From positions 248,001 to 312,000 of the forward strand of contig NC_042999.1 in the NCBI RefSeq assembly GCF_006345805.1: a stretch of DNA of 64,000 nucleotides, read 5' to 3'. The position numbers were made by a program, and so were the translations under genes. The notes below the pieces were generated by a model that saw only the letters and a program-made list of their open reading frames with translations, did no database searches and had not been told where the DNA came from. Within the stretch, counting starts at the first letter, position 1; every line of letters begins with the position of its first letter. The DNA comes from Octopus sinensis (taxonomy: Eukaryota). Shown in pieces: positions 2,868-55,961 of the stretch.

Positions 2868-5800
2868 CTTAGAATAACTTAGAAAGGTTTTGGCCAGTAT
2901 TGGCCCAGGCCATGTCTAACTTAATAGCACCACCTGGCGAAGTCTTTCAGTTCAGGATTTAGGCACCAAGGCCCATTCGAGCAGAGAGTTATTGTTTGCG
3001 GAGACATATCCGGGTGTGGGTGGTTTGTCCGTACTGTTTGAAGGAATTTGTCCAAAGACTTTTGTCTGGTCAGTTTCTTTTTTGACGTGCCCTGGTGTAA
3101 TGTTGAAGAGAGCAGGTCCAATTGAGGTGAAATAGTTGTGCCGTATTGTCGTTATGTGATGCGATTTAGATTTTTGTTGTGGACGGATGGCACGTGGTCC
3201 AAGCCTTGGATGCATTTTGAAGGTGATGCCAACATCATTCGGACAGTGCTGGTGGAATATTTTCCACATCATACAGATAATGTAGCGTTCACGCTCGTCG
3301 TGGAGTGAATACAATTTTCAGCTTCTCTAGTCCCCCAGTAGTCAAGGTCTGACATGCCATCTATCTTTTTGTGATTGACCTTTGGGGAGCTTAATTCTCA
3401 TAATATTTGTTTTGTGTAGGGAGACCACAGTGGACAGCAGTATTCAAGGTGGGGTCGGGCAAAAGTGGAGAAGAGAAGGATAATAGCGTGGGAATCTCTC
3501 GACTGGAAGGTTCTGAGAATCCAGGAACACATTCTGCGGGCCATGTCAACTTTGCTGCTTATGTGTAGCCCAGCTTATGTTGTTGTCCACTGTTACTCCC
3601 AGGTCTCTGATGTTGTTGGATGCCATGAGAATTTCTCCAGAAGGAAGAGAGTATGGGAGTTTCAGAGCGTCCTCCCTTCCAAAGTGGATCAGTTCAAATT
3701 TGTCTTCATTTAGCAACATGTTATTCTTTTACGCCCATTGGACAACAGCCAGTAGGTCTGACTGAAGGTTTATTCGGTCATCCCCCGCCATTGATGACCT
3801 TCTGGAGCTTGGAATCATCAGCGAAGGTTCTGATGTTACTGTGTTTGATGGTGTCAGTAATATCATTTATGTAGATGATGAAGAAAAGTGGGCCCAACAC
3901 AGTGCCTTGTGGGACACCACTGCTGACTTTGGCTGGGCTGGATTTGACTCCTTCGACTACAACATGTTGGGTTCTGTTAGACAGGAAGCACTTGATCCAC
4001 TGCAGCAGCTTTCCAGTGACACCAATATTGGACAGCTTTCTCAGAAGGGTCTTATGATCAACCCTGTCAAAGGCCTTGCTGAAATCAAGGTAGATGACAT
4101 CAGTGGGAACCTTCTCCCAAGGCTCTGAAAATGTCATCAAAATGATGCAGTAGCTGCGTCAGGCAATCTCTCCCATTACGGAATCCATGCTGGTTGGGGT
4201 TCAGCATATTATGACTCTCAGGAAGTGAGTCATACGCGATCTCAGCACCCTCTCAAATACCTTGATGATATGAGAGGTGAGTGAGATTGGACGGTAATTC
4301 ACGGCAAGCGATTTGTTTCCTTTTTTGAAAACTGGGACAACAGACTGGGATAGAAGGTCTTCTGGTATATATCCAGCATCCAGTGAGTTCCGCCACAGAT
4401 TGGCTAGAGGGGGTGCAAGTTGGTTTTGACACATCTTCAAGACACAAGCAGGGAACCTATCGGGACCTACTGCTGAATTATGCTTCATTTCCTTTATTGC
4501 TGCTAAGACATCAGGAGCGCCAAATGTTATGTCCGATAAAGTGTATTGGGGAGTAACATCACTGATACAGTCCAGATCAGTCATATCAGGATTGCTGAAA
4601 ACAGAGCAATATTGTTTCTGCAATATCTCTCCCATGGTTTTGGCATTGTCTTGAAGAGTACCATTTTCATCAATCAGAGGGCCAACAGTAGAACCAGTGA
4701 CTCTGTGTTTTTTTGCAAATGAAAAAAACACTTTGGATTGAGTTTGATCTTCTCAATGGCCCAGGCCTCTTCAGCTCTTCGCTGACTATTGATGATAGAC
4801 ATCATGTTGTTTTGGAGTTTATGTTTTTTAATCTCTAGACGAGACGAGATGGCAGTCAGGTTGGTGTGTTGCTGTTGACAGTATTTCAGCATGTTGATCT
4901 TTTTGTTGATTCTTTTAATTTTCCTTATGAGAGATTTTCTATTTCTAGGGATTCGACACTTAGATTTGTTTGCAGATCTTAATGGGGTGTGTCTTGCACA
5001 TATGTTCGTGATGGTGTCTACAAGTGACTGCCAGGACTTTTTGATGTTAGTGGGTGTGTATGTGTGCGTGAAGGACCAATCGACTTGTGCAAGATCATTA
5101 TTGATCGCTTCCCAGTTTGCATTGGAAATCCATAGTGTCAAATGGATGAACAGGAGGGATGACATTTGTTTTGCATTTTGGCCAGTGAAATCTCAGATCA
5201 CAGAGAACCATGTCATGGTCGGAGAGTAGGGTTTTCTCCACTGCAATATTGTGGATAGTATCAGTGTGATTGCTGAAAATTAAGTCTAAGACGTTTTTGT
5301 GACATGTCGTTGGTTCGAGTACCAGTTGGGACAAGAAGAAGTCATCCATGAAGTCAAGAAGCGATTCCACTGCCTCCCTGTCAGGGGTTGAGAGAGAAGA
5401 ACCTGGCGGCAGACGGTTGTAGACCAGTCAACCCCGGGAAGGTTGAAGTCTCCCATCATTAAAATGTTGTCAGGTTGACACTGCTGAATGAAACACTTTA
5501 TGTGTTGAGGCATTCCTTGAAGCATGGTAGGGGCGTTTGGGGGTGGTCTGTAGAGCCCAACTACTGTAAGTTGTTGGTTTGGCTGAATACAGCGACTGCT
5601 TCGCAGTATCCATTGGAAAAAATGTTCATGGCTTCTGTTGAGAATGAATCATGGACATAAATGGCAGTCCCACCCTTTCTTCTGCCAGCACGATCAGCAC
5701 GAAAGGTTTTGAAATTTTTAACTTTCACCTCGGCTTCCAAGTGGAGGTCACTAGATGGGTTTCAGTGAGGACGAAGAAAGGGATGTGGTTTGGATGGGCC

Positions 5801-6308
5801 TCGACCCAGTCCTCCAGGAATCTTATCTTCCATTTTTGTGTATTGGTGGAAGGGCTGATGCCTTGGGCATTAAGCAGAAATGTTGAGGCGAGAGTGGATG
5901 GTTTTAATTGTTTTGGTGATTTGTTTATTTGATTGCTTTTTAATGGTATGTGCAGTGGTGTAATAGTGGTGGATGGGGGGTTGTGATAGCTCGGATGTTT
6001 TTTCCAGTTCTTTTGCTAGATTCATTATAGCTAAAAAAGAGGAAGAAGAGGTGGTTTCCTGTCTAGGGAACCGCAGGTGACTGTGGCCGCGGCTATTTTT
6101 ATATGAGTGGTTATCTTGAAATGTCCGACGAGTCCCCGGGAGATGGGTAAAGGGGCAATCCCTGTGCAAACACAATCTGTCTCGCTGGGAATAGCGGCAG
6201 ATTTGGGGATTCCTTGTTTGAGATATTGGTGGTTGTGGTGGTGTTGTATTATGGTGGTTGCTGTTGTAGTTTGTGGGGATAGAGCGTTTTGTTCCAGGTA
6301 GATGGGTC
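2867..6308 (-). mobile_element. Near full-length decayed CR1-group LINE (CCCH finger, APE endonuclease, RT), frameshifted
   Basis: APE motifs LNAQGI, FFVLTETHL, MGDFNLP, LDLIFSN, LSDHD. RT motifs GPDRFP, NYRPISLTS, YLDFSKAFDRVDH, SGVPQGTVLGP, FADDSKL. 3' tail ctaagttattctaagt. (TA)n on both sides. Confidence 0.93.
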
Positions 6309-6407
6309 TATATATATATCTATATATATATCTATATATCTATATATATATCTATATATCTATATCTCTCTCTCCTATATATATATATATATCTATCTAT
6401 ATATATA

Positions 6408-8661
6408 CTCTTTTACTCTTTCAGCCATCCGGCTGAGGCCATGCTGGGGCACCGCCTTGTTGCTACCCTCTCTAAGTCCAGTTTGCCGTGGCTGGCCACT
6501 GATCTAAGAGAGAGTTTGTAGCTGCTGCCCTTAGGTTACCTTCGTACCTTGCAGTGGGTTCATGGGATCCCGGAAAGCAGCTTGTCTAGATGTTTTTTGA
6601 AAATGTCCACATCCGCATCACGTAGATCTCTTAGTTTTCTTGGCAGTTTGTTGAACAGCTGAGGGCCCCTGAACCCCAGGCTATTACAGTATCTGCTCCT
6701 TACCCTGGATGTGGAAGACGGGACCTTTGGCACCACACAGTGACGTCCTGTACGGGGATTGGAACAGCTCTCAATTCCAAAATTGGTGTGCTAGTCCCTC
6801 CCGGATTTTCCATATATATATCACTGCATATCTCTCTCGTCTTCGTTCCAAGGAGTACAAATTGAGTTCCCTAAGCCTCTCCCAATAGTTCTTTTCTTTC
6901 ATGGTGGAAATCCTCTTGGTGAAATGTCTTGGATTGTCTCAAGCTCTGTGGTTAGTTTGACACTATGCGGTGACCACAGTTGGGAGCAGTAGTCCAGGCG
7001 GCTTAGGACAAATGTCCTCCATAGTGTCAACATGGTCTCGCAGTCTCTTGTCCGGAATGTCCTCAGGATCCAGCCAGTGAGTCGTCTGCACATTGTCGCC
7101 ATCTTCGCGATGTGTGAAGAAAAAGATGCATCGTCACTCATGTCTATCCCCAGGTCCCGTATTGATTTCGATACTGGGATTTCGATCCCTCCTGAACCAG
7201 TATAGTTGTGTTGTAATGTATATGTGTTTACAGCTTGATATTGTAAGGCTTGAAATTTACCAGCATTAAATTGCATGTTGTTGTCTTCAGCCCATTTGTA
7301 TATGGCATCCAGATCTTGTTGTAAAAGGTCAGCATCAGCTGGGTTTTTGATTGCCTGTGCTACCTTTGTGTCATCAGCATAGCTAGTGAGGGATGTTGTT
7401 TGTGCTACCAAGGGCATGTCAGGAGCGCCACCAAAAACAGCAAGGGTCCCAAGACTGGCCCTGTGGCACCCCGCTTGCTATTGGTGTCTTTCCCGAGAGG
7501 GCTCCATTGGCTGCAACCATCTGGCTTCTGTCCTTCAGGAAGTCATGTATCCACTCACCTACTTTTCCTGTTATGCCGAGTCTGAGTAATTTGTGACATA
7601 TCACTCCGTGGTCGACTTTGTCAAAGGCCTTCGCAAAGTGGAGATATACCACATCAACTGTGAGCGATCCAGTAGTTGTTTCAGTACCCAGTCGTAGTGT
7701 TGTAACAGCTGCGTAAGGCAGCTTCTTCCTGGGCGAAAGCCATGCTGTGTGTCAGTGAGACGGTTAGTTTCTTCGAGGAACGTGATCAGTTTTTTTCTGA
7801 TGATTCGTTCCATGACCTTACTTATGTGTGACGTCAGGGAGACTGGCCTGTAGTTTTTGGCCTCTGCTCTACTCCCTCCTTTGTGGATAGGGCATATGGT
7901 GCCTTCTTTTAGCGCCCTGGGCAGTTACCGTTAGCCAAGGAACCACTGAAGAGCCTCTTCAGTGGTCCCGCTAGGGCATGCCTGCATGTATTTAGGAGGA
8001 CTGCTGGGAATCCATCTGGTCCAGCAGCTGAGTTTATTCTCATTTCTTCTATGGCAGATATTACATCCCTCTCTGTTATGTCTATGTGGTCGATGGTTGT
8101 TGGTTTTTTGGAGTGTTGTGGCATCAAAGAAAACTTCTGGGTTTGTGATTTGCATGTGCCCCAGAGGGGATGTGAACACACTTTTATACTGTTCCTTAGT
8201 ATTTCACTTATCCCTTGGGGGTCCTCAGTTAGAGAGCCCTTTTTATCAAGAGTGGGCCAATCTTGGAGTGTACCGAGATGGTTTCTTTCGCAAATTTAAA
8301 GAAGGCTTTAGGGTTTGTTTTAATATTCTCTATGGCCCTGGCTTCTCTCTCTGCCCTCTCCTTCTCATAGGAAAGTTGAGTGCAGTTTCCGTTTCAAAAA
8401 GTTTCAGGTGGAGTCCCTCATTGTTTCTCTGCCGTGCATTCAGTTGCTTCGAGAGCTTAGCTCTTCGCCTCATAAGTATTTTCCTGTCTCTGGGAATAAC
8501 GTTCCTATGCCCGCTGGCTTTTTTCTCCGGGACAAACTTATGGCATATGTTCTGTATTGTTGTCATGAAATGTTGGAAATGTGTGTTGGTGTCTTGTGTG
8601 GTGATGAAGTCACTCCAGTCATGTTTTCGGATCTCTTCGTTGATCTTCTTCCAGTTTGCCT
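6408..8661 (-). mobile_element. 5'-truncated decayed CR1-group LINE, second family (RT region plus 3' end)
   Basis: Motifs AAGPDGFPAVLL, QHGFRPGRSCLTQLL, YLHFAKAFDKVDH, SGVPQG, YADDTK, LDYCSQLWSP. Tail ggcggtgccccagcatggcctcagccggatggctgaaagagtaaaagag. Confidence 0.93.
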
Positions 8662-9139: not shown

Positions 9140-9552
9140 AGGCACAGGAGTAGCTGTGTGGTAAGTAGCTTGCTTACGAGCCACAGAGTACGGGGTTCAA
9201 TCCCACTGCGTGGCTCCTTGGGCAAGTGTCTTCTACTATAGCCTCTGGCTGAAAAGCCTTATAAGTGGATTTGGTAGAAGGAAACTGAAAGAAGCCCGTC
9301 GAATATATGTATATGTATATATATCTATGTGTGTGTGTGTATGTTTGTGTCTGTGTTTGTCCCCTCATCATCGCTTGACAACCGATGCTGGTGTGTTTAC
9401 GTCCCCGTAACTTAGCGGTTCGGCAAAAGAGACCGATAGAATAAGTACTAGGCTTACAAAGAATAAGTCCTGGGGTCGATTTGCTCGACTAAAGGCGGTG
9501 CCCCAGCATGACCGCAATAACATGACTGAAACAAGTAAAAGATTAAAAGAGT
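9140..9552 (+). mobile_element. SINE family A (tRNA-like head, CORE-like ccttgggcaagt, internal microsatellite, CR1-like tail)
   Basis: Pol III A box tagctgtgtgg and B box ggttcaatccc; many similar copies in the window. Confidence 0.9.
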
Positions 9553-11067
9553 GAAATAGGGGGAAATAAACTGAACGGTGTCTAGTTTGCATCGGCAAGC
9601 ATGAATTCATTAAAATGTGTAACATATAAATTAATGTGTTGGTTTTATTTTTGAAATGGTGGTGTGTTAGTTGCAACGAGATGGTCGTTTATTAATTGTT
9701 TAAAGCAGATTCCATTTCGCTCAGGGGATGGGTCTGGTGGTAACATTTGACATTTCTTATCTTCAAACAAATCAAGCAAATTCATATTTGCGTTTCAAGA
9801 AACTGATTTGAAATATTCATTTGAAGCGAATTTTTTTTTATTTGCTACGTGATACTTGCAGTTTTACATGTGACAGCTTTTCCTACGCCAAGATGGACGA
9901 AAATAAAAATAAAAGGCAATAAAATATATCTGTGATAAAGTTGGGGTCATCAAAGAAAAATGTTGATAAAATCATTAATGCTTAGATTGAACGTGAGTTC
10001 GTTAGCATAGCAGTAGTGCCGGATTGAATTAAGCGTGTACTGTTAATTAAAAGTCTTGTTTGAACAATCAAACTGTGTACGTGCAGTTAATTGATGTAAT
10101 ATGAGTGCTGACTAATTGGCGAGTTGACAACTCATCTGACGATTTGACAGAGTGGAATCTGACGGCAATCTCGAGTACCGAACGGGATTATAGTAACCAG
10201 AGAGATTTTTCATAGGTTTACATAGCATATGAAAACTATAAGGGTGTATGAATGTAAATATATGTATACAAGCGGAATTAGTAAGGGGTTTCTGAAGCGA
10301 GTGGGTATAAATAAATAAAATCGTCTTAGAATGATTGACTCTTTGAAAATATTTTTTTCTAATTTTGGGGCTTCACTTGAAGCGATAAAGTGGAGAGATT
10401 CTTATTATCCGAAAAGAGAATTAATAATTTCTCAATTCCTAAGATCCATAATATAACAATTACTTTTATTTTATTATAATGGCTTTTTAAAGTTCTTAAC
10501 ATCATCATGCACAATCGTATATAGCCGGATTTGAAGAAACCCTTCGTAAAACGAGAATGGATTAAGAAATAATTATTCAAAAGCTCGACAAATACTGTCT
10601 GACGAACTACAGTCACGAAGAAGAACCTTTAATTCCTTTCATAAACATATATACTCTACATATGCAATGCCAACCTTGAAAATATGGCTAACATTGACAA
10701 AATATAATCGTTTGAAATCGTTCATTTGATTAACCATTTGTCTAGATATGGAACATTTTACTGAAAAATCTAAAGCCTGCCAGAATTTTCCCACAACCTA
10801 GGCGTCATCCTATGATAATCTCTGACAGAAGTTCACGGGAAGAGGACGGCAAACGATGTGTTCATTTTCAAGACCAGACTAATTTCTTTGTTCCATTCAA
10901 CCAAGAGTTACAAATATCCCTAACAACTGAAATGAAATATTGACTGTGAATGTGAGGTCATGTAGCAACATATGTTTTATTTTTAAAATAGGGGCCAGAG
11001 CTGAAGTGTCAATCCAAATTTTTCGAGAAACAAATGCTTATAATCAATATTAGGGCGGCGAGTTGAG

Positions 11068-19707: not shown

Positions 19708-20253
19708 GCGGCGAGCTGGCAGAAACGTTAGCACGCCGGGCGAAATGCTTAGCGGTATTTCGTCTGTCGTAAGGTGGCGAGCTGGCAGAAACGTTAGCAC
19801 GCCGGGCGAAATGCTTAGCGGTATTTCGTCTGTCGTAAGGTGGCGAGCTGGTAGAATCGTTAGCACGCCGGGCGAAATGCTTAGCGGTATTTCGGCTGCC
19901 GTTACGTTGTGAGTTCAAATTCCGCCGAGGTCGACTTTGCCTTTCATCCTTTCGGGGTCGATAAATTAAGTACCAGTTAAGCACTGGGGTCGATATAATC
20001 GACTTAATACCTATGTCTGTCCATGTTTGTCCCCTCTATGTTTAGCCCCTTGTGGGTAATAAAGAAATAGGTATTTCGTCTGTCGTTACGTTGTGAGTTC
20101 AAATTCCGCCGAGGTCGACTTTGCCTTTCATCCTTTCGGGGTCGATAAATTAAGTACCAGTTAGGGACTGGGATCGATGTAATCGACTTAATACCTATGT
20201 CTGTCCTTGTTTGTCCCCTCTATGTTTAGCCCCTTGTGGATAATAAAGAAATA
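19708..20253 (+). mobile_element. SINE family B compound (3 heads, 2 bodies); Meta-domain-like core, Tx1-like tail
   Basis: Core gtcgactttgcctttcatcctttcggggtcgataaattaagtacc; flanking duplication ggtgttcaaac. Confidence 0.9.
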
Positions 20254-20350
20254 GGTGTTCAAACTGAATCTATAAGGATTATCCTTATCAATATTTACAC
20301 GTCATACTAGTATGCTATTCCAATTAATATACATACATACATACATACAT

Positions 20351-26657: not shown

Positions 26658-26842
26658 TTATTTCGCAAAGGAAACTTACTCGAGGCAAAGTCATTGAGGC
26701 CATTTGTATTCTTCCCAGCCAGAAATTGCAGATCTTAACTGTTTTTAAGTTGAAGTCACTCTGTCATTTCAACTCTCTTTCTCCCTCTCCCTCTCTCTGT
26801 CTCTCTCGATTAGCTCAATATTGCAAAAAATTGGACTTCGGT

Positions 26843-27590
26843 AAGGCGGTGAGCTGGCAGAAACGTTAGCACGTCGGGCGAAATGCTTAGCCGTATTTCG
26901 TCTGCTGCTACGTTCTGAGTTCAAATTCCGCCGAGGTCGACTTTGCCTTTCATCCTTTCGGGGTCGATTAAATAAGTACCAGTTACGCACTGGGGTCGAT
27001 ATAATCGACTTAATCCGTTTGTCTGTCCTTGTTTGTCCAGTCTGTGTTTAGCCACTTGTGGGTAGTAAAGAAATAGATATATCGTCTGTCTTTACATTCT
27101 GAGTTCAAATTCCGCCGAAGTCGACTTTGCCTTTCATCTTTTCGACGTCGATAAATTAAGTACCGGTTGCGTACTGGGGTCGATCTAATCGACTCCCCCT
27201 CCCCCAAGAAAAAATTTCGGGCTTTGTACCTAGAGTAGAAAAGAATATTTCTAACATTTTACGTTGAGGTCGACTTTGCCTTTTATCCTTTCGGGGTGGA
27301 TAGATTAAGCACCAGCTGCGTTCTGGGGCGATCTAATCGATTGGCCCCCTCCCCCCAAATGTAGGTCCTAGTGGCTAGAGTAAAAAAGAATCTTTAGCAC
27401 ACCGGTGGAAATGCTTAGCGGCATTTCGTTCGTCATTATGTTCTGAGTTCAATTTCCACCGAGATCAACTTTGATTTCATCCTTTCGAGATCGATAAAAA
27501 TGTACCAGTTGAGCACTGGGGTCGATGTAATCGATTTAATCTCCCACCCAAACCTGCTGGCCGTTTGTCAAATTTGAAACCAATATTGGT
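26843..27590 (+). mobile_element. Cluster of SINE family B units (about 4, two tail types)
   Basis: Repeated gtcgactttgcctttcatcc cores. Confidence 0.87.
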
Positions 27591-30548: not shown

Positions 30549-30730
30549 GTTCGGTTCGGTTCGGTTCGGTTCGGTTCGGTTCGGTTCGGTTCGGTTCGGT
30601 CCGGTCCGGTCCGGTCCGGTCCGGTCCGGTCCGGTCCGGTCCAGTCCGGTCCGGTCCGGTCCCGTCCGGTCCGGTCCGGTCCGGTCCGGTCCGGTCCGGT
30701 CCGGTTCGGTTCGGTTTGGTTCGGTTCGGT
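30549..30730. repeat. GC-rich pentanucleotide satellite (CGGTT)n-(CCGGT)n-(CGGTT)n
   Basis: Seen directly. Confidence 0.97.
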
Positions 30731-38275: not shown

Positions 38276-38299
38276 GGCGGTAAGTATGATTTGTAAAAA

Positions 38300-38880
38300 A
38301 CAGTGAGTTGGCAGAAACGTTAGCACGTCGGGTTAAATGCTTAGCGGTATTTCGTCTGCCGTTACGTTCTGAGTTTAAATTGTTTTTTATCTTGTTTTTT
38401 ATCCTTTCAGGGTCGATAAATTAAGTACCTGTTACACACTGGGGTCAATATAATCGACTTAAACCATTTGTCTGTCCTTCTTTGTCCTCTCTGTGTTTAG
38501 CCCCTTGCGGGTAGTAAGGAAATAGGTATTTCGTCTGCCGTTACGTTCTGAGTTCAAATTCCGCCGAGGTCGACTTTGCTTTTCAACTTTTCGGGGTCGA
38601 TAAATTAAGTACCAGTTACGCACTGGGGTCGATGTAATCGACTTAATCCGATTGTCTGTCCTTGCTTGTCCTCTCTGTGTTTAGCCCCTTGTGTGGTAAT
38701 AAAGAAATAGGTATTTCGTCTGCTGTTACGTTCTGAGTTAAAATTCCGCCGAGGTCGACTTTGCCTTTCATCCTGTCGGGATCGATAAATTAAATATCAA
38801 TTGCGTACTTGCGGTGATCTAACTGACTGGTCCCTCCCCCAAAATTTCGGGCCTTGTGCATGGAGTAGGAAAGAATATTG
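38300..38880 (+). mobile_element. SINE family B compound (1 head, 3 bodies)
   Basis: Each body restarts at ggtatttcgtctg directly after a tail ending aaata. Confidence 0.9.
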
Positions 38881-43413: not shown

Positions 43414-43871
43414 ATGTACACAATGGAATAGTTTAACATTATCAAACGTACGAAGCCATTAAAAAATGAATAACGATAGTTCAGAAGGAAAATCTGCAAC
43501 GGAAATATTACAGCAAGGTGATGCTAGTCAGCTCAAGAAACAATAAAAGCAGGGACTATGAAAACTACACAACAAACTGTATCTCAAAACAGAGATGAAG
43601 TCACAATAAGCAACTAGTAGACAGGTCTGAACCTAAACAGCCAATCAATAATCTTACAAAAACAATGCAATTAGTGCCAATACGAATGAATGAAATTAGT
43701 AAATATAACAGACAAAATTGTAATAGAAAAAACTTTTGAAATGGTAATACTTGAAGACAGACGACTAACCTGCAAAATGTCAAGTAACAAAAAACAAAAC
43801 AAAAATCTAATCAAATAAACTAACTGTATATTGGATAATTACCGAGCAAAATGATATAATGAATTAATAAC

Positions 43872-44103
43872 TATTTCTTTACTACCCACAAGGGGCTAAA
43901 CACAGAGGGGACGAACAAGGACAGCCAAACGGATTAAGTCGATTACATCGACCCCAGTGCGTAACTGGTACTTAATTTATCGACCCCAAAAGGATGAAAG
44001 GCAAAGTCGACCTCGGCGGAATTTGAACCCAGAACGTAACGGCAGACGAAATACGGCTACGCATTTCGCCCGGCATTCTAACGTTTCTGCCAGCTCGCCG
44101 CCT
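43872..44103 (-). mobile_element. SINE family B, full length with TSD
   Basis: tataatgaattaata duplicated at 43855-43869 and 44104-44118. Confidence 0.93.
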
Positions 44104-45024
44104 TATAATGAATTAATATCTTAAAGCAAATACTGGGTACCACCGATGTATTGTAACATAGCGACAAGCATCAAAATAAAGGAAGAAGTCTAGGAAATCT
44201 AAAATAGGTGCAGTTTTGAAACTAAAGATTCAGCAGTAATATTGTAAGGGAAAGAATACAAGTAAAATAAACGGGGCTGAAAACAAAAGCTCTGTGATGT
44301 CTTCTCACAAAAAAATAGTTATAAAGAAAGCGTAAAATTGAAAACGAACTGTAAGTTAAATGTCACGGAAAAATTATTTATTCAACAATAGAAGGTTAAA
44401 ACCAAAGTTTGGACAATGAAAAGGTAAGAGAAAGGAATCAATTAATTTAAACAAAATAAAATAACATTTCGATAAAAGAAGCCATTACGGGAAATTATAT
44501 GACAAAACACTCCGCAAGTAAAAAGAAACTAGAAACCTTTAGAAGGAAACTAGAAAAGCGCCATAAAATGAATAAATAGCTCATAGAACAAAAGAACGGT
44601 AAATCTTGTGGCACCACAAGAATGGTGAATAAAATGGAAGCCATAAGAGAAAATGACAGTTGGAAAATCACTTGTGGTAGACAAATTATAAATTATTTAG
44701 ATAAAACGTCCGCATGACTTATACCCAAATGTGTTATACACCAAATGCTTTAATATAATAATAAAATGCACATTTCAAGTACTAGAATGGATGACGTAAG
44801 GAAAAATCGTTTTAGCTCAAAACAGAGACGGCTGACTAAAAATGTTACATCCAGTCAGCTTCTTCTGACTCCTACAAAACGCCACAATCAGGAAAAAAGA
44901 AAGCAAAATGTCATATTACACTTGAACAGAAAAGTTGCAGGAATCGGTAATTTTGCTGTAAAACCCAGCTTGTGATGAACACGACAATATTAAAGGGAAA
45001 TAGGTAAAAACAGAAGTGTTTACA

Positions 45025-49195: not shown

Positions 49196-49520
49196 TGTGG
49201 CGATCATTCTGTTTTTAATTCATACAACTTGACTCGTGCTCAACTATTTCTAAGAGACATCGATCGATTATCTGTAATGAGTGACAAAATAAAATCATAT
49301 TCCAGAAAATAACAGTTCTATGGTCTTAAAGGACACTCTGATACAATAATTAACAACCAAGTATTAAAGGTTATAATGTGTGGAAAGAGACCCTGTGAGA
49401 CCTCTGACAGCAGGCTGCTGTCCGCTCTTATAGAGACTACCACAGCAAACAAGATCGAGCGCTCTGAGAAGTAAAAGAATCATAGTAAATTTAAGAAAAA
49501 GTAAAATAGATATCACAGAC

Positions 49521-49707
49521 TTTGTCAGTGATCAGATCGCGGTCTCAAAGCGACGAAAATATTTTGACAAATTAAATTTAAATGTTGAAGTGAATCTAAC
49601 GGTTTTGTGTGTTTCTTAAGTGGTTTATAAACACCTTCCACGTTGCAATTATGTTGCAAGCACACGATCTCAGATCCAGTGACTCGCTATGCAAGTACAT
49701 TTCCGTA
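49521..49707 (+). ncRNA. Hammerhead module copy 1, G3-C8 core (ribozyme fold 49521-49571)
   Basis: tttgtca-GTGATCA-g(a)tcgc/gcgac-GAAA-atat-TT-tgacaaa. Confidence 0.8.
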
Positions 49708-49715
49708 ATATATAT

Positions 49716-49750
<35 letters not shown>

Positions 49751-49762
49751 GCAGCAAGGAGT

Positions 49763-49953
49763 TTTGTCAGTGAACAGATCGCAGTCTCAAAGCGACGAAA
49801 ATATTTTGACAAATTAAATTTAAAAGTTGAAGTGAATCTAACGGTTTTTGTGTGTTTCTTGAATGGTTTATAAACACCTTCCACGCTGCAAATGTTTTCG
49901 TTCCAGCAAACGATCTCAGATCATATCACTTGCTATGCAAGTACATCTCCGTG
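49763..49953 (+). ncRNA. Hammerhead module copy 2, G3-C8 core (ribozyme fold 49763-49813)
   Basis: tttgtca-GTGAACA-g(a)tcgc/gcgac-GAAA-atat-TT-tgacaaa. Confidence 0.8.
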
Positions 49954-49989
49954 AAATAGATATGTTAATAAGCAATTTAAATGGAAGGA

Positions 49990-50690
49990 AAAATACAGAA
50001 AGAATTTGATAACCTGAGAGGTGAAATGTTATTAGTTGGAGCGGAAACCAGAGGTGTGGACGTAAAGACTAGAAATGCATGGACATTTAAAAGAAGTATG
50101 AGATCACACATGAAGAGACTTTATTGAACTCCAAAGCGACTCTGAAACAACGCATCCTGGTCAAAACACTTTGAGTTAGACGATACGACAAGGGAAGTAA
50201 GTTCTACAAACAACATAAAAGCTTTGAAGCTGATGCAAACAAATTTTACCGGGAGATAGGGAAACACCCAATTGAGATCAAGGAACCACAACCTACCATG
50301 AACGTGGTTTAACAGTTCTGGGAATATATTTATGAAACAGTAAGAAAACATGCAATAAAGAAGTTGAATGGATTAATAGAGAAATAAACAAATTCATAGA
50401 TATTAACCATCAAGAATAGATATTAACCATCAAGAATAGATATTAACCATCAAGAGAGATATTAACCATCAAGAGAGATATTAACCATCAAAAATAGGGC
50501 TGCGGGAGTTAAGGCAGGCACTTAGAAAAGCATGTAACTGTTAATCCCCTAAGTAGACAAAATCCCTAATTTTTGGCTAAAGGCACTTACAGGGATACAT
50601 AAAGAACTTGCTTATGAGATTACGCCTATAATATAAAACCAGAGCGAACCCAGGGGACTGGTTGACAGTAGCAACATCATTTATTTTCTG
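49990..50690 (+). mobile_element. Decayed R4/Dong-like ORF fragment (pre-RT region and RT start)
   Basis: LKQRI..VRRYDKGSKFYKQ..DANKFYREIGK..QFWEYIY; DKIPNFWLKALTGIHKELA; DWLT. Confidence 0.75.
50396..50497. repeat. 19-20 bp minisatellite, 5 copies (agatattaaccatcaaga)
   Basis: Seen directly. Confidence 0.95.
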
Positions 50691-50929
50691 CACTCTCTGC
50701 TTGCGGGAGGGGTGCGCATTAACACGGGTTAGTTGCCTCTGTTTTATGAAGCTATAGTATTAGACATATCTCATGTTAGTTTTGTCAGCTAACATGGGGT
50801 ATGTTAGATGGCTTAGGGTACGTGTTGCTGCAAGGAATGTTTGAAGTAGGCATTATTTTTTGAGTTTTCCATCTCCTAGACTGATTGCTTTCGCTGTAGT
50901 TAAGGAACTCAGTCTACTCCTTACTATTT

Positions 50930-53699: not shown

Positions 53700-54179
53700 A
53701 CCACACACACACACACCACACACACACACACACCACACACACACACACGCACGTACACACACGCACACACACACACACACATACACGAGTGTGTTACATG
53801 CTCATATGCATACATATTATGTGTATGTAATTACACACACTCACACACTAACACACACACGCAGGCACACACACACATACATATACATCAGTGTGTTACA
53901 TACATATACGCATACAATTATGCATATGTATTTGCACACACTCACACACACACATGTCTGTATCCACAAACACGTGCGTGTTACATGCTCATATGCATAA
54001 AATTATGTGTATTCAATTACACACACTATAGAGCTATCATACACACTCACACACAAACATACACTCACACACACACACGCACACTCGAATGCACACACAT
54101 ATACAAATACATCAGTGTGTTACATACCTATACGCATATAATTCTGCGTATGTATTTGCACACAATACAGAGGCATCAT

Positions 54180-54223
<44 letters not shown>

Positions 54224-55097
54224 ACACACACACCCACACTCTAACGCACATGTCTATATACATATACACGTGTGTGTTACATGCTCATATGCATACAATT
54301 ATGTATATATAATTACACACACTATAGAGCTTTCATACACACACACAGGCACACACACACACACACACACACACAAACTCAAACGCACATGTCTATATAC
54401 ATACACACGTGTGTGTTACATGCTCATATGCATACAATTATGTTTATATAATTACACACACTATAGAGCTATCATACACGCACATACACACTCACACACA
54501 CACAAGTCTATATACATATACACGTGTGTGTTACATGCTCATATGCATACAATTATGTTTATATAATTACACACACTATAGAGCTTTCATACACACACAT
54601 ACACACTCACACACACATGTCTATATACATATACACGTGTGTGTTACATGCTCATATGCATACAATTATGTATATATAATTACACACACTATAGAGCTAT
54701 CATACACGCACATACACACTCACACACACTCACACACACACAAGTCTATATACATATACACGTGTGTGTTACATGCTCATATGCATACAATTATGTATAT
54801 ATAATTACACACACTATAGAGCTATCATACACGCACATACACACTCACACACACTCACACACACACAAGTCTATATACATATACACGTGTGTGTTACATG
54901 CTCATATGCATACAATTATGTATATATAATTACACACACTATAGAGCTTTCATACACACACATACACACTCACACACACACACACACATGTCTATATACA
55001 TATACACGTGTGTGTTACATGCTCATATGCATACAATTATGTTTATATAATTACACACACTATAGAGCTATCATACACACACACACACACACGCATA
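53700..55097. repeat. CA-rich minisatellite, about 110-130 bp unit, about 10 copies
   Basis: Recurrent cacgtgtgtgttacatgctcatatgcatacaattatgt..ctatagagct. Confidence 0.95.
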
Positions 55098-55961
55098 AAC
55101 AAACCATTCTCTGATGTTATAGTTTGGGGAGTAATCCGTCCATTTCCTGTAGGAATTAGATCATCTTTGCTATAATATTCCCCATCACGCGATGTTGCTA
55201 TAATTTCGGAAGGAAACATCATCTCTCGTCTCGAGGCGAACTTCTTTGATTAGATATCTACTTTGTTGTTAGCCATTTAGTTATTTGGCCAGTGGAGATA
55301 GAGAAATCAAGAATTTAAAAGGAATGCCAAAGCAAGACTTTCGTAAACTGACAAGCAAACTATCATCTGAAATAAAAATAATCCGTTGGATGGAGAAAGT
55401 TGATTGTTATTATGTGTAAGATATCGAAAAATTGCCAGTTGTCTGGTTGTGGAATTATAAACCCAAACACTCTGATGTAATCCGCCTTTTACACAGGAAA
55501 ATATTTCGTACGAATGAATTGATACGTGTAAGAAGGTGAATGCATATCTACCATACACATACACACAACATACACAACACACACTTATACAGATAAACAG
55601 AGAAGCACTCGCCGATAGTTACACACGGACAGACTAGTGCACAAGTGTGTAAATATTTACCTATCTTCCATTCATTCTTAGTAGATGTTTCTCTTCTCTT
55701 TGCTTCTATTTAGTGATCTTCTATTTTCCGTCTCTACTTCGTCATCAGAAATTCCTCATATTCTTTTCTTTATCTTTCTCCATTTATATATTTTTGCTTA
55801 TATCTGCCTGTCCATCGATCACTTTCTACGTTTATGTGCATACATGTTATGGAAGCTTGTACACACAAATACGCACATATATACGAATATAAACACACAC
55901 ATAAACACACACACATATCCATACATTTATATATATATATATATATTATATATATATATAT

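Follow-up and report, generated by a model that had tools for sequence, protein, structure and literature searches.

A hammerhead-like motif with a G3-C8 pair in the terminal repeats of a Penelope-like element of Octopus sinensis

Two direct repeats in the DNA of Octopus sinensis (contig NC_042999.1, forward-strand positions 248,001 to 312,000; this stretch of 64,000 nucleotides (nt) is called the window here) each contain a sequence resembling a minimal type I hammerhead ribozyme in which G3 and C8 stand in place of the C3 and G8 of the consensus core. The question raised by this locus is to which kind of element the repeats belong, and whether a ribozyme with such an exchanged tertiary pair is at work in it. 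With a probability of about 0.7, the repeats are decayed, 5'-truncated pseudo-long terminal repeats (pLTRs) of a Penelope-like element, carrying a natural G3-C8 minimal type I hammerhead that is likely a weak self-cleaver in the active element.

The repeats, their family and the parent element

The two copies are 87.6% identical in an alignment of 201 nt and are separated by a (TA)n tract (49708-49750 in the repeat analysis), as described in an earlier note made from the sequence alone. Each reads TTTGTCA / GTGA(T/A)CA / stem II / GAAA / AATATT / T / TGACAAA, so that the minimal hammerhead anatomy proposed there is present in both. The cuts are predicted to fall after 49564 and after 49806, at a distance of 242 nt. 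A type I descriptor accepting any Watson-Crick pair between positions 3 and 8 (the 3:8 pair) finds exactly these two matches in the window, and 60 block-wise dinucleotide shuffles gave about 0.1 weak matches per window and none at window strength (stem I at least 7, stem II at least 5). According to the earlier note the two cores differ at position 7 alone, which holds for the 7-nt core; the copies differ in loop II and in the downstream sequence too. From the family majority, copy 1 differs at 17 of 191 positions and copy 2 at 11 of 199.

Scanning of the 2.7-Gb genome returned 3054 candidate copies of the unit. A 34-letter motif pattern that leaves positions 3, 7, 8 and two others free had 1245 exact matches (reversed control, 0). 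G3-C8 is present in 1123 of the 1245 and C3-G8 in none; 51 matches lack G3 (31 A, 14 T and 6 C by hand count), and 71 have G3 without C8 (32 T, 31 G and 8 A). G3-C8 is the state of the hammerhead motif in this pLTR family, which bears out the suspicion of a compensatory core overlooked by CUGANGA descriptors. The junction residues U4, G5, A6, A9, G12, A13, A14, A15.1, U16.1 and H17 are present in the three-way-junction motif; the consensus identities C3 and G8 are absent, and the Watson-Crick 3:8 pair itself is kept. The motif is very probably hammerhead-derived.

The family majority reads A9-G-GUCGC/GCGAC, that is, one extra base followed by a perfect stem II of 5 base pairs (bp) with G10.1-C11.1, rather than the bulged stem II drawn in the earlier note. 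The base drawn as a bulge is an A replacing G10.1; it does occur in the window copies, which are without G10.1-C11.1 unless the extra G substitutes. This A is seen in only 4% of 178 family copies, and a second rare variant (3%) is common to both window copies, so that they probably come from one event and have decayed; the direct pair is likely the outcome of one local event, re-priming or duplication. Because G10.1 is lost, both window copies are likely, by prediction, to be weaker than the master ribozyme. Near-identical sequence occurs in sequencing runs of five organisms, four of which were mapped; a run labelled insect metagenome (share 0.18) is not counted as evidence. The only frequent in-stem variant, A49809G (about one fifth of depth), keeps the pairing as U.G.

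Followed upstream, the copies share a CA-rich region whose last 25 nt have 197 matches, and beyond it were found a GIY-YIG end and a reverse transcriptase (RT). The RT plus GIY-YIG parent envisaged earlier was thus located, elsewhere in the genome, at two loci, L150 and L155. In L150 the motif (G3 at 2065) is followed 92 nt after G3 by an ATG (2157), then by the RT (YVDD), a CQSNCAVC linker, YIGETSR and a stop near 5371, with one frameshift in the open reading frame (ORF). A second motif copy (G3 at 6426) lies 4361 nt after the first, behind the 3' untranslated region (UTR), and (TA)n follows. L155 has the same layout for subfamily A, to which the window copies belong. The start of the parent ORF, MAYKHLPRC, lies inside the unit of about 200 nt. 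Since the unit is found at both ends of L150 with the ORF start inside it, it corresponds to the 5' UTR of a 4.36-kb Penelope-like element together with about 30 codons at the beginning of its ORF.

The GIY-YIG domain scored 26 bits in Pfam (PF01541, cut-off 22.6), and Atlas neighbours carry RVT_1, HTH_animal and GIY-YIG. The protein P0001 alone gave no Pfam RT match, while 4 of 32 aligned relatives have one, and solved structures returned weak RT matches alone. The longest open frame, of 1042 amino acids, belongs to a copy of subfamily B (C16). In having RT and C-terminal GIY-YIG in one ORF, a pLTR at each end, inverted arms truncated at the 5' side and an optional tail, the element shows the features of endonuclease-containing (EN+) Penelope-like elements. 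By its linker (CQSNCAVC) and CCHH motif (VYQIKCQEGAC..YIG..H..H) the element fits the definitions of Neptune or Nematis (PMC8557442). No relatives turned up in viral and prokaryote collections, and a first metagenome scan was empty; a sister element in the genome gave a 99% match to a protein labelled Octopus vulgaris.

Two other origins were dropped. A miniature inverted-repeat element with GAGATG ends was abandoned once the ORF was found. Naiad elements, considered because they target (TA)n and are without canonical hammerheads, are contradicted by the C-terminal endonuclease of the parent; four words of the element were also unmatched in the Naiad sequences of Craig's supplement, where line breaks could hide matches.

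Among 60 loci not picked for arrangement, 47 are single copies, 11 head-to-head pairs and 2 direct pairs, the latter being the pair described here and a locus made of fragments. In inverted pairs, which lie in (TA)n, one arm typically stops near GCTGCAAT and the other at CATCTCCGTA. The 3' ends of 164 copies are bimodal: 57 coincide with the first site and 83 with the second, which lies about 57 nt from it and is the query end as well, but the flanks diverge there. Most copy ends lie at these two ORF sites or a short way 5' of stem I rather than at the cut. Bimodal ends and inverted arms are the tail and inverted-arm pattern of Penelope elements (PMC8557442). In five insertions (G000:C1:14181671 and four further rows) the strand switches inside stem I, an inverted arm running through TGACAAA into a forward copy, and stem I may form during insertion. 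One locus (L232, G000:C5:19323580-19325050) has seven head-to-tail units of 201-nt period with a decayed motif, beside an inverted arm, and looks like local amplification.

The minimal type I hammerheads of Penelope elements (Cervera & De la Pena 2014, PMC4209133) share with the octopus family the pLTR site, the extra base between 9 and 10.1, G10.1-C11.1 (as family state), the palindromic stem III and mostly single or opposite-strand copies; they differ in having C3-G8 or U3-A8 instead of G3-C8 and a stem I of 4-5 instead of 7 bp, and U17 sets the octopus motif apart. PAc, a Poseidon element of anole (Frangieh 2024, PMC11167929), is alike in its ORF start inside the pLTR, two early-ORF 3' ends that define a tail, AT-rich targets and insertions from uncut RNA. 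Unlike the octopus element, PAc has C3-G8 (C3G/G8C was engineered there), its ORF starts within the hammerhead and not 92-93 nt after G3, and its tail is 30-40 nt against about 57 nt; the octopus element has a linker zinc finger. Neptune and Nematis (Craig 2021, PMC8557442) resemble it in having cysteines between the two motifs of the C-terminal GIY-YIG, a CX2-5CxxC linker, insertion into (TA)n, inverted arms truncated at the 5' side and tails, whereas the long CA-rich 3' UTR and the non-canonical core are peculiar to the octopus element in this comparison, made by motifs and not by tree.

Positions 3 and 8 across related families

Between subfamily A (82 copies) and subfamily B (11 copies), the core and the stems are unchanged at all 42 positions. 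Loop II shows 4 changes and an indel, the flanking UTR 8 differences in 87, and fourfold sites 41 in 196 (one pairwise ORF comparison). Apart from one stem I deletion, the motif is identical in the copies of subfamily B compared; this identity, proteins about 97% identical and the 1042-residue open frame indicate that subfamily B is young.

Two further families, C and D, carry a motif at the equivalent place relative to the ORF, either preceding the ATG or following the stop. In family C the motif has C3-G8 together with C9, and in family D it has U3-A8; a quick RT tree groups A and B as sisters of C. Three of the four possible Watson-Crick pairs at 3:8 thus occur among sister families of a single genome. 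As judged from these related families with C3-G8 or U3-A8 at an equivalent place, the 3:8 pair covaries in nature. In about 30 copies of family C (L161:6865-6915), C9 is seen in nearly all and position 17 is U or C; at L181, C9 occurs together with U3-A8.

Metagenome loci were scanned without a 3:8 constraint, 25 of 37 in all, and gave 4 matches, all Watson-Crick (3 U-A, 1 C-G), each with palindromic stem III and 106-137 nt behind the ORF; 0.02 were expected from shuffles, and minus strands gave 0. Looser scans add L186 and L182 (C3-G8), L199 (U3-A8) and a G12A group. At L182 (4973-5020), a single locus, the palindromic stem III contains U15.1-A16.1. The near-identical contigs L191-L193 and L195 have CUGAAGA, stem II and the palindrome with A for G12, about 130 nt behind the ORF.

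In the cross-family motif table, which was built by script, no motif has at position 17 the Watson-Crick complement of its position 3. This absence fits the idea of an inhibitory 3-17 pairing discussed in PMC3884650. Natural U3-A8 has been reported in Cercyon (PMC4209133), and natural U3-A8 and U15.1-A16.1 hammerheads in PMC3088659. No natural G3-C8 was found in the literature searched, where it is known only as a laboratory mutant; subscription papers are mostly outside that literature, so that a prior case is possible. A natural high-copy G3-C8 family beside C3-G8 and U3-A8 sisters would show selection on the tertiary pair and not on its letters. Searches based on CUGANGA would undercount hammerheads, and Penelope elements scored as without hammerheads may hide such swapped cores.

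Evidence on cleavage and competing explanations

Most insertions keep the whole hammerhead, so that uncut RNA is the usual template. In the mechanism proposed, the RT of the element would start inside the ORF (at about +30 or +90) and copy back to the RNA 5' end, some 20 nt above stem I, giving the unit of about 200 nt, usually from uncut RNA. The hammerhead would cut slowly after U17, either dimerised through the AAUAUU palindrome or aided by the protein of the element, or both, and G3-C8 would restore the tertiary pair that single changes destroy. For PAc (PMC11167929), C3G/G8C partly rescues the hammerhead, cleavage needs the protein, uncut RNA is the usual template and no reads were found to stop at the cut. 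The family form of the motif would probably cut under some condition; young near-identical copies with long open frames suit a cleavage assay.

The 5' ends of copies are of two kinds. Twelve copies without upstream parent sequence start with GAGATGCAGC (among them L004, L009, L015, L022, L028, L030 and L224) where the parent has CAGATG; the count comes from 110 matches, of which 57 lack the upstream end of the parent, and some 20 of these belong to other sequences. The extra 5' G suggests a capped RNA end copied by the RT. It may instead come from a short spliced exon, as the site also resembles a 3' splice site with branch point (CTAAC..TTTCTCAG, immediately before the unit); neither a donor to go with it nor a spliced joint was seen in copies or presumed-RNA contigs. 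Some families of EN+ Penelope-like elements have a spliceosomal intron in their pLTR.

Other copies begin at the predicted cut. Exactly at position 1.1 begin 15 loci among 46 matches. With a wider pattern (150 matches, 100 listed, 32 of these judged visually to be point mutants, internal deletions or flips of stem I and set aside), 68 were examined and 62 classed as not continuing the parent; among the matches listed, the cut is the commonest 5' start over positions 51-63, with 12 of the 62, the other twelve positions having 9, 8, 7 or fewer (mean 4.2). The Poisson p of 0.001 for this excess is overstated, the background being uneven and some rows being deletions, and the excess is no more than suggestive of cleavage. 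Tentatively, and from sequence comparison, a recently active Penelope lineage might run on a G3-C8 hammerhead cutting in the germ line, the cut-site insertions being a fossil record of cleavage in vivo; a family of so many copies lets their share be measured directly.

Several observations weigh against an active ribozyme. The background of starts is uneven (9 at position 55, 8 at 61), a single control position, estimated at 10-12 of 238, gave no clear contrast with the cut site, and 0 of about 20 truncated arms began at the cut. Presumed-RNA contigs cover the parent and have no end or splice joint, which contigs cannot show. The predicted ground state pairs G3 with U17, extending stem I, a possible wobble trap in the model. 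UUU is a poor cleavage triplet. When the window pair is folded as a dimer in cis, its energy is about 15 kcal/mol higher than that of the ensemble. The 42 unchanged positions carry modest weight as evidence (p about 0.02 if the UTR rate is assumed), one relative group has G12A, and no motif was found in L183, L187, L205, L206 and L208 despite room behind the ORF. Changes of C8 to G (31 of 1245) outnumber those of G3 to C (6), and a mismatched G3-G8 source may also have made copies; no shared diagnostic positions were evident in 4 such sequences, one an alignment artefact. Among copies, in a sample partly chosen by pattern, the core decays like flanking DNA, and the test of G3/C8 invariance proposed in the earlier note gave no signal. 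This outcome had been named beforehand as telling against the ribozyme, yet nothing can be learned from it, since copies decay neutrally once they are inserted; what does inform is the comparison of one family with another.

In one rival reading the motif descends from a hammerhead and no longer cuts, its fold kept for another RNA job (protein binding, translation control or splicing control) or still undecayed. Such a reading is unlikely, though it draws on the dispensability of the PAc hammerhead for insertion in vitro (PMC11167929), the origin of most copies from uncut RNA, the excess of G3-G8 copies, the G3.U17 trap and the tolerance of C9, U15.1-A16.1 or G12A in related elements. It must explain why passing from C3-G8 or U3-A8 to G3-C8, which needs two changes, restored exactly the catalytic tertiary pair, why core and stems are unchanged in young subfamily B, and why, among the matches listed, 5' starts in this stretch of the motif are most frequent at the cut. 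Mere chance likeness in an AT-rich transposon UTR is the least probable explanation. In its favour are the unremarkable folding energy of both window motifs (z -1.1 and -0.8) and an Rfam search of the window that gave no hammerhead match; Rfam also misses 5 of 5 scanned relatives, two with canonical cores, so that the swap alone does not explain this. Against it, window strength was reached in 0 of 60 shuffles, and the place equals that of canonical and U3-A8 motifs in related elements, a positional homology that largely excludes it.

The earlier note favoured a non-autonomous retrozyme, in which the pair could release a monomer of about 240 nt by dimeric cleavage and the monomer might form a circle. 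The two cut sites are indeed 242 nt apart and a dimer is topologically possible; the size agrees with metazoan non-LTR retrozymes, whose units of 200-240 nt carry a hammerhead of type I (Cervera & De la Pena 2020, PMC7229834), and one 7-copy array exists. Those retrozymes, however, are head-to-tail arrays with canonical hammerheads and circular RNAs, whereas the octopus unit is a dispersed fragment of an autonomous coding element, found as direct pairs at 2 of 60 loci. The (TA)n spacer is not common to other copies, G10.1 is absent from both window copies, the energy of the dimer is unfavourable as given above, and the array has a decayed motif. A retrozyme is very unlikely here, and a decayed Penelope pLTR with a G3-C8 hammerhead is preferred.

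Coordinates and other features of the window

Table 1. Features of the repeat pair (positions in the window)
Feature	Position	Strand	Remarks
Copy 1, 5'-truncated solo pLTR of Penelope-like element	49514..49707	+	85.6% identity to L150 pLTR
Hammerhead-like motif 1	49521..49571	+	stem I 49521-27/49565-71; core G3 49528 to A9 49534; extra G 49535; A instead of G10.1 at 49536; stem II up to 49554; GAAA 49555-58; palindrome AAUAUU 49558-63; U17 49564
Relic of first ~30 codons of parent ORF, copy 1	49620..49707	+	start codon GTG, indels
(TA)n spacer	49708..49748	.	common flank of insertions of this family
Copy 2, solo pLTR	49749..49952	+	common 5' end (ATGCAGC) to long 3' end (CATCTCCGT); 87.9% identity to L150 pLTR
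Hammerhead-like motif 2	49763..49813	+	G3 49770; C8 49775; A for G10.1 at 49778; U17 49806
ATG and first ~30 parent-ORF codons, copy 2	49863..49952	+	ATG 93 nt 3' of G3
Optional tail, from first to second 3' end site, copy 2	about 49896-49952	+	last ~57 nt

Directly behind copy 2, a broken reading frame (49953-50700, ..FYREIGK..FWEYIYE..) may resemble a non-LTR retrotransposon of the restriction-like endonuclease type. On the minus strand, 4204-7477 contains fragments of a LINE-type RT ORF, with a weak RVT_1 match at 6902-7477 (E 0.0018). Dispersed SINE-like repeats of 200-300 nt occur in both orientations (19710-20256, 26841-27140, 38290-38793, 43866-44105 and the 9354-9556 family). A (CGGTC/CGGTT)n array occupies 30552-30730, and a CA-rich tandem array with a period of 125-139 nt lies at 53900-55120.
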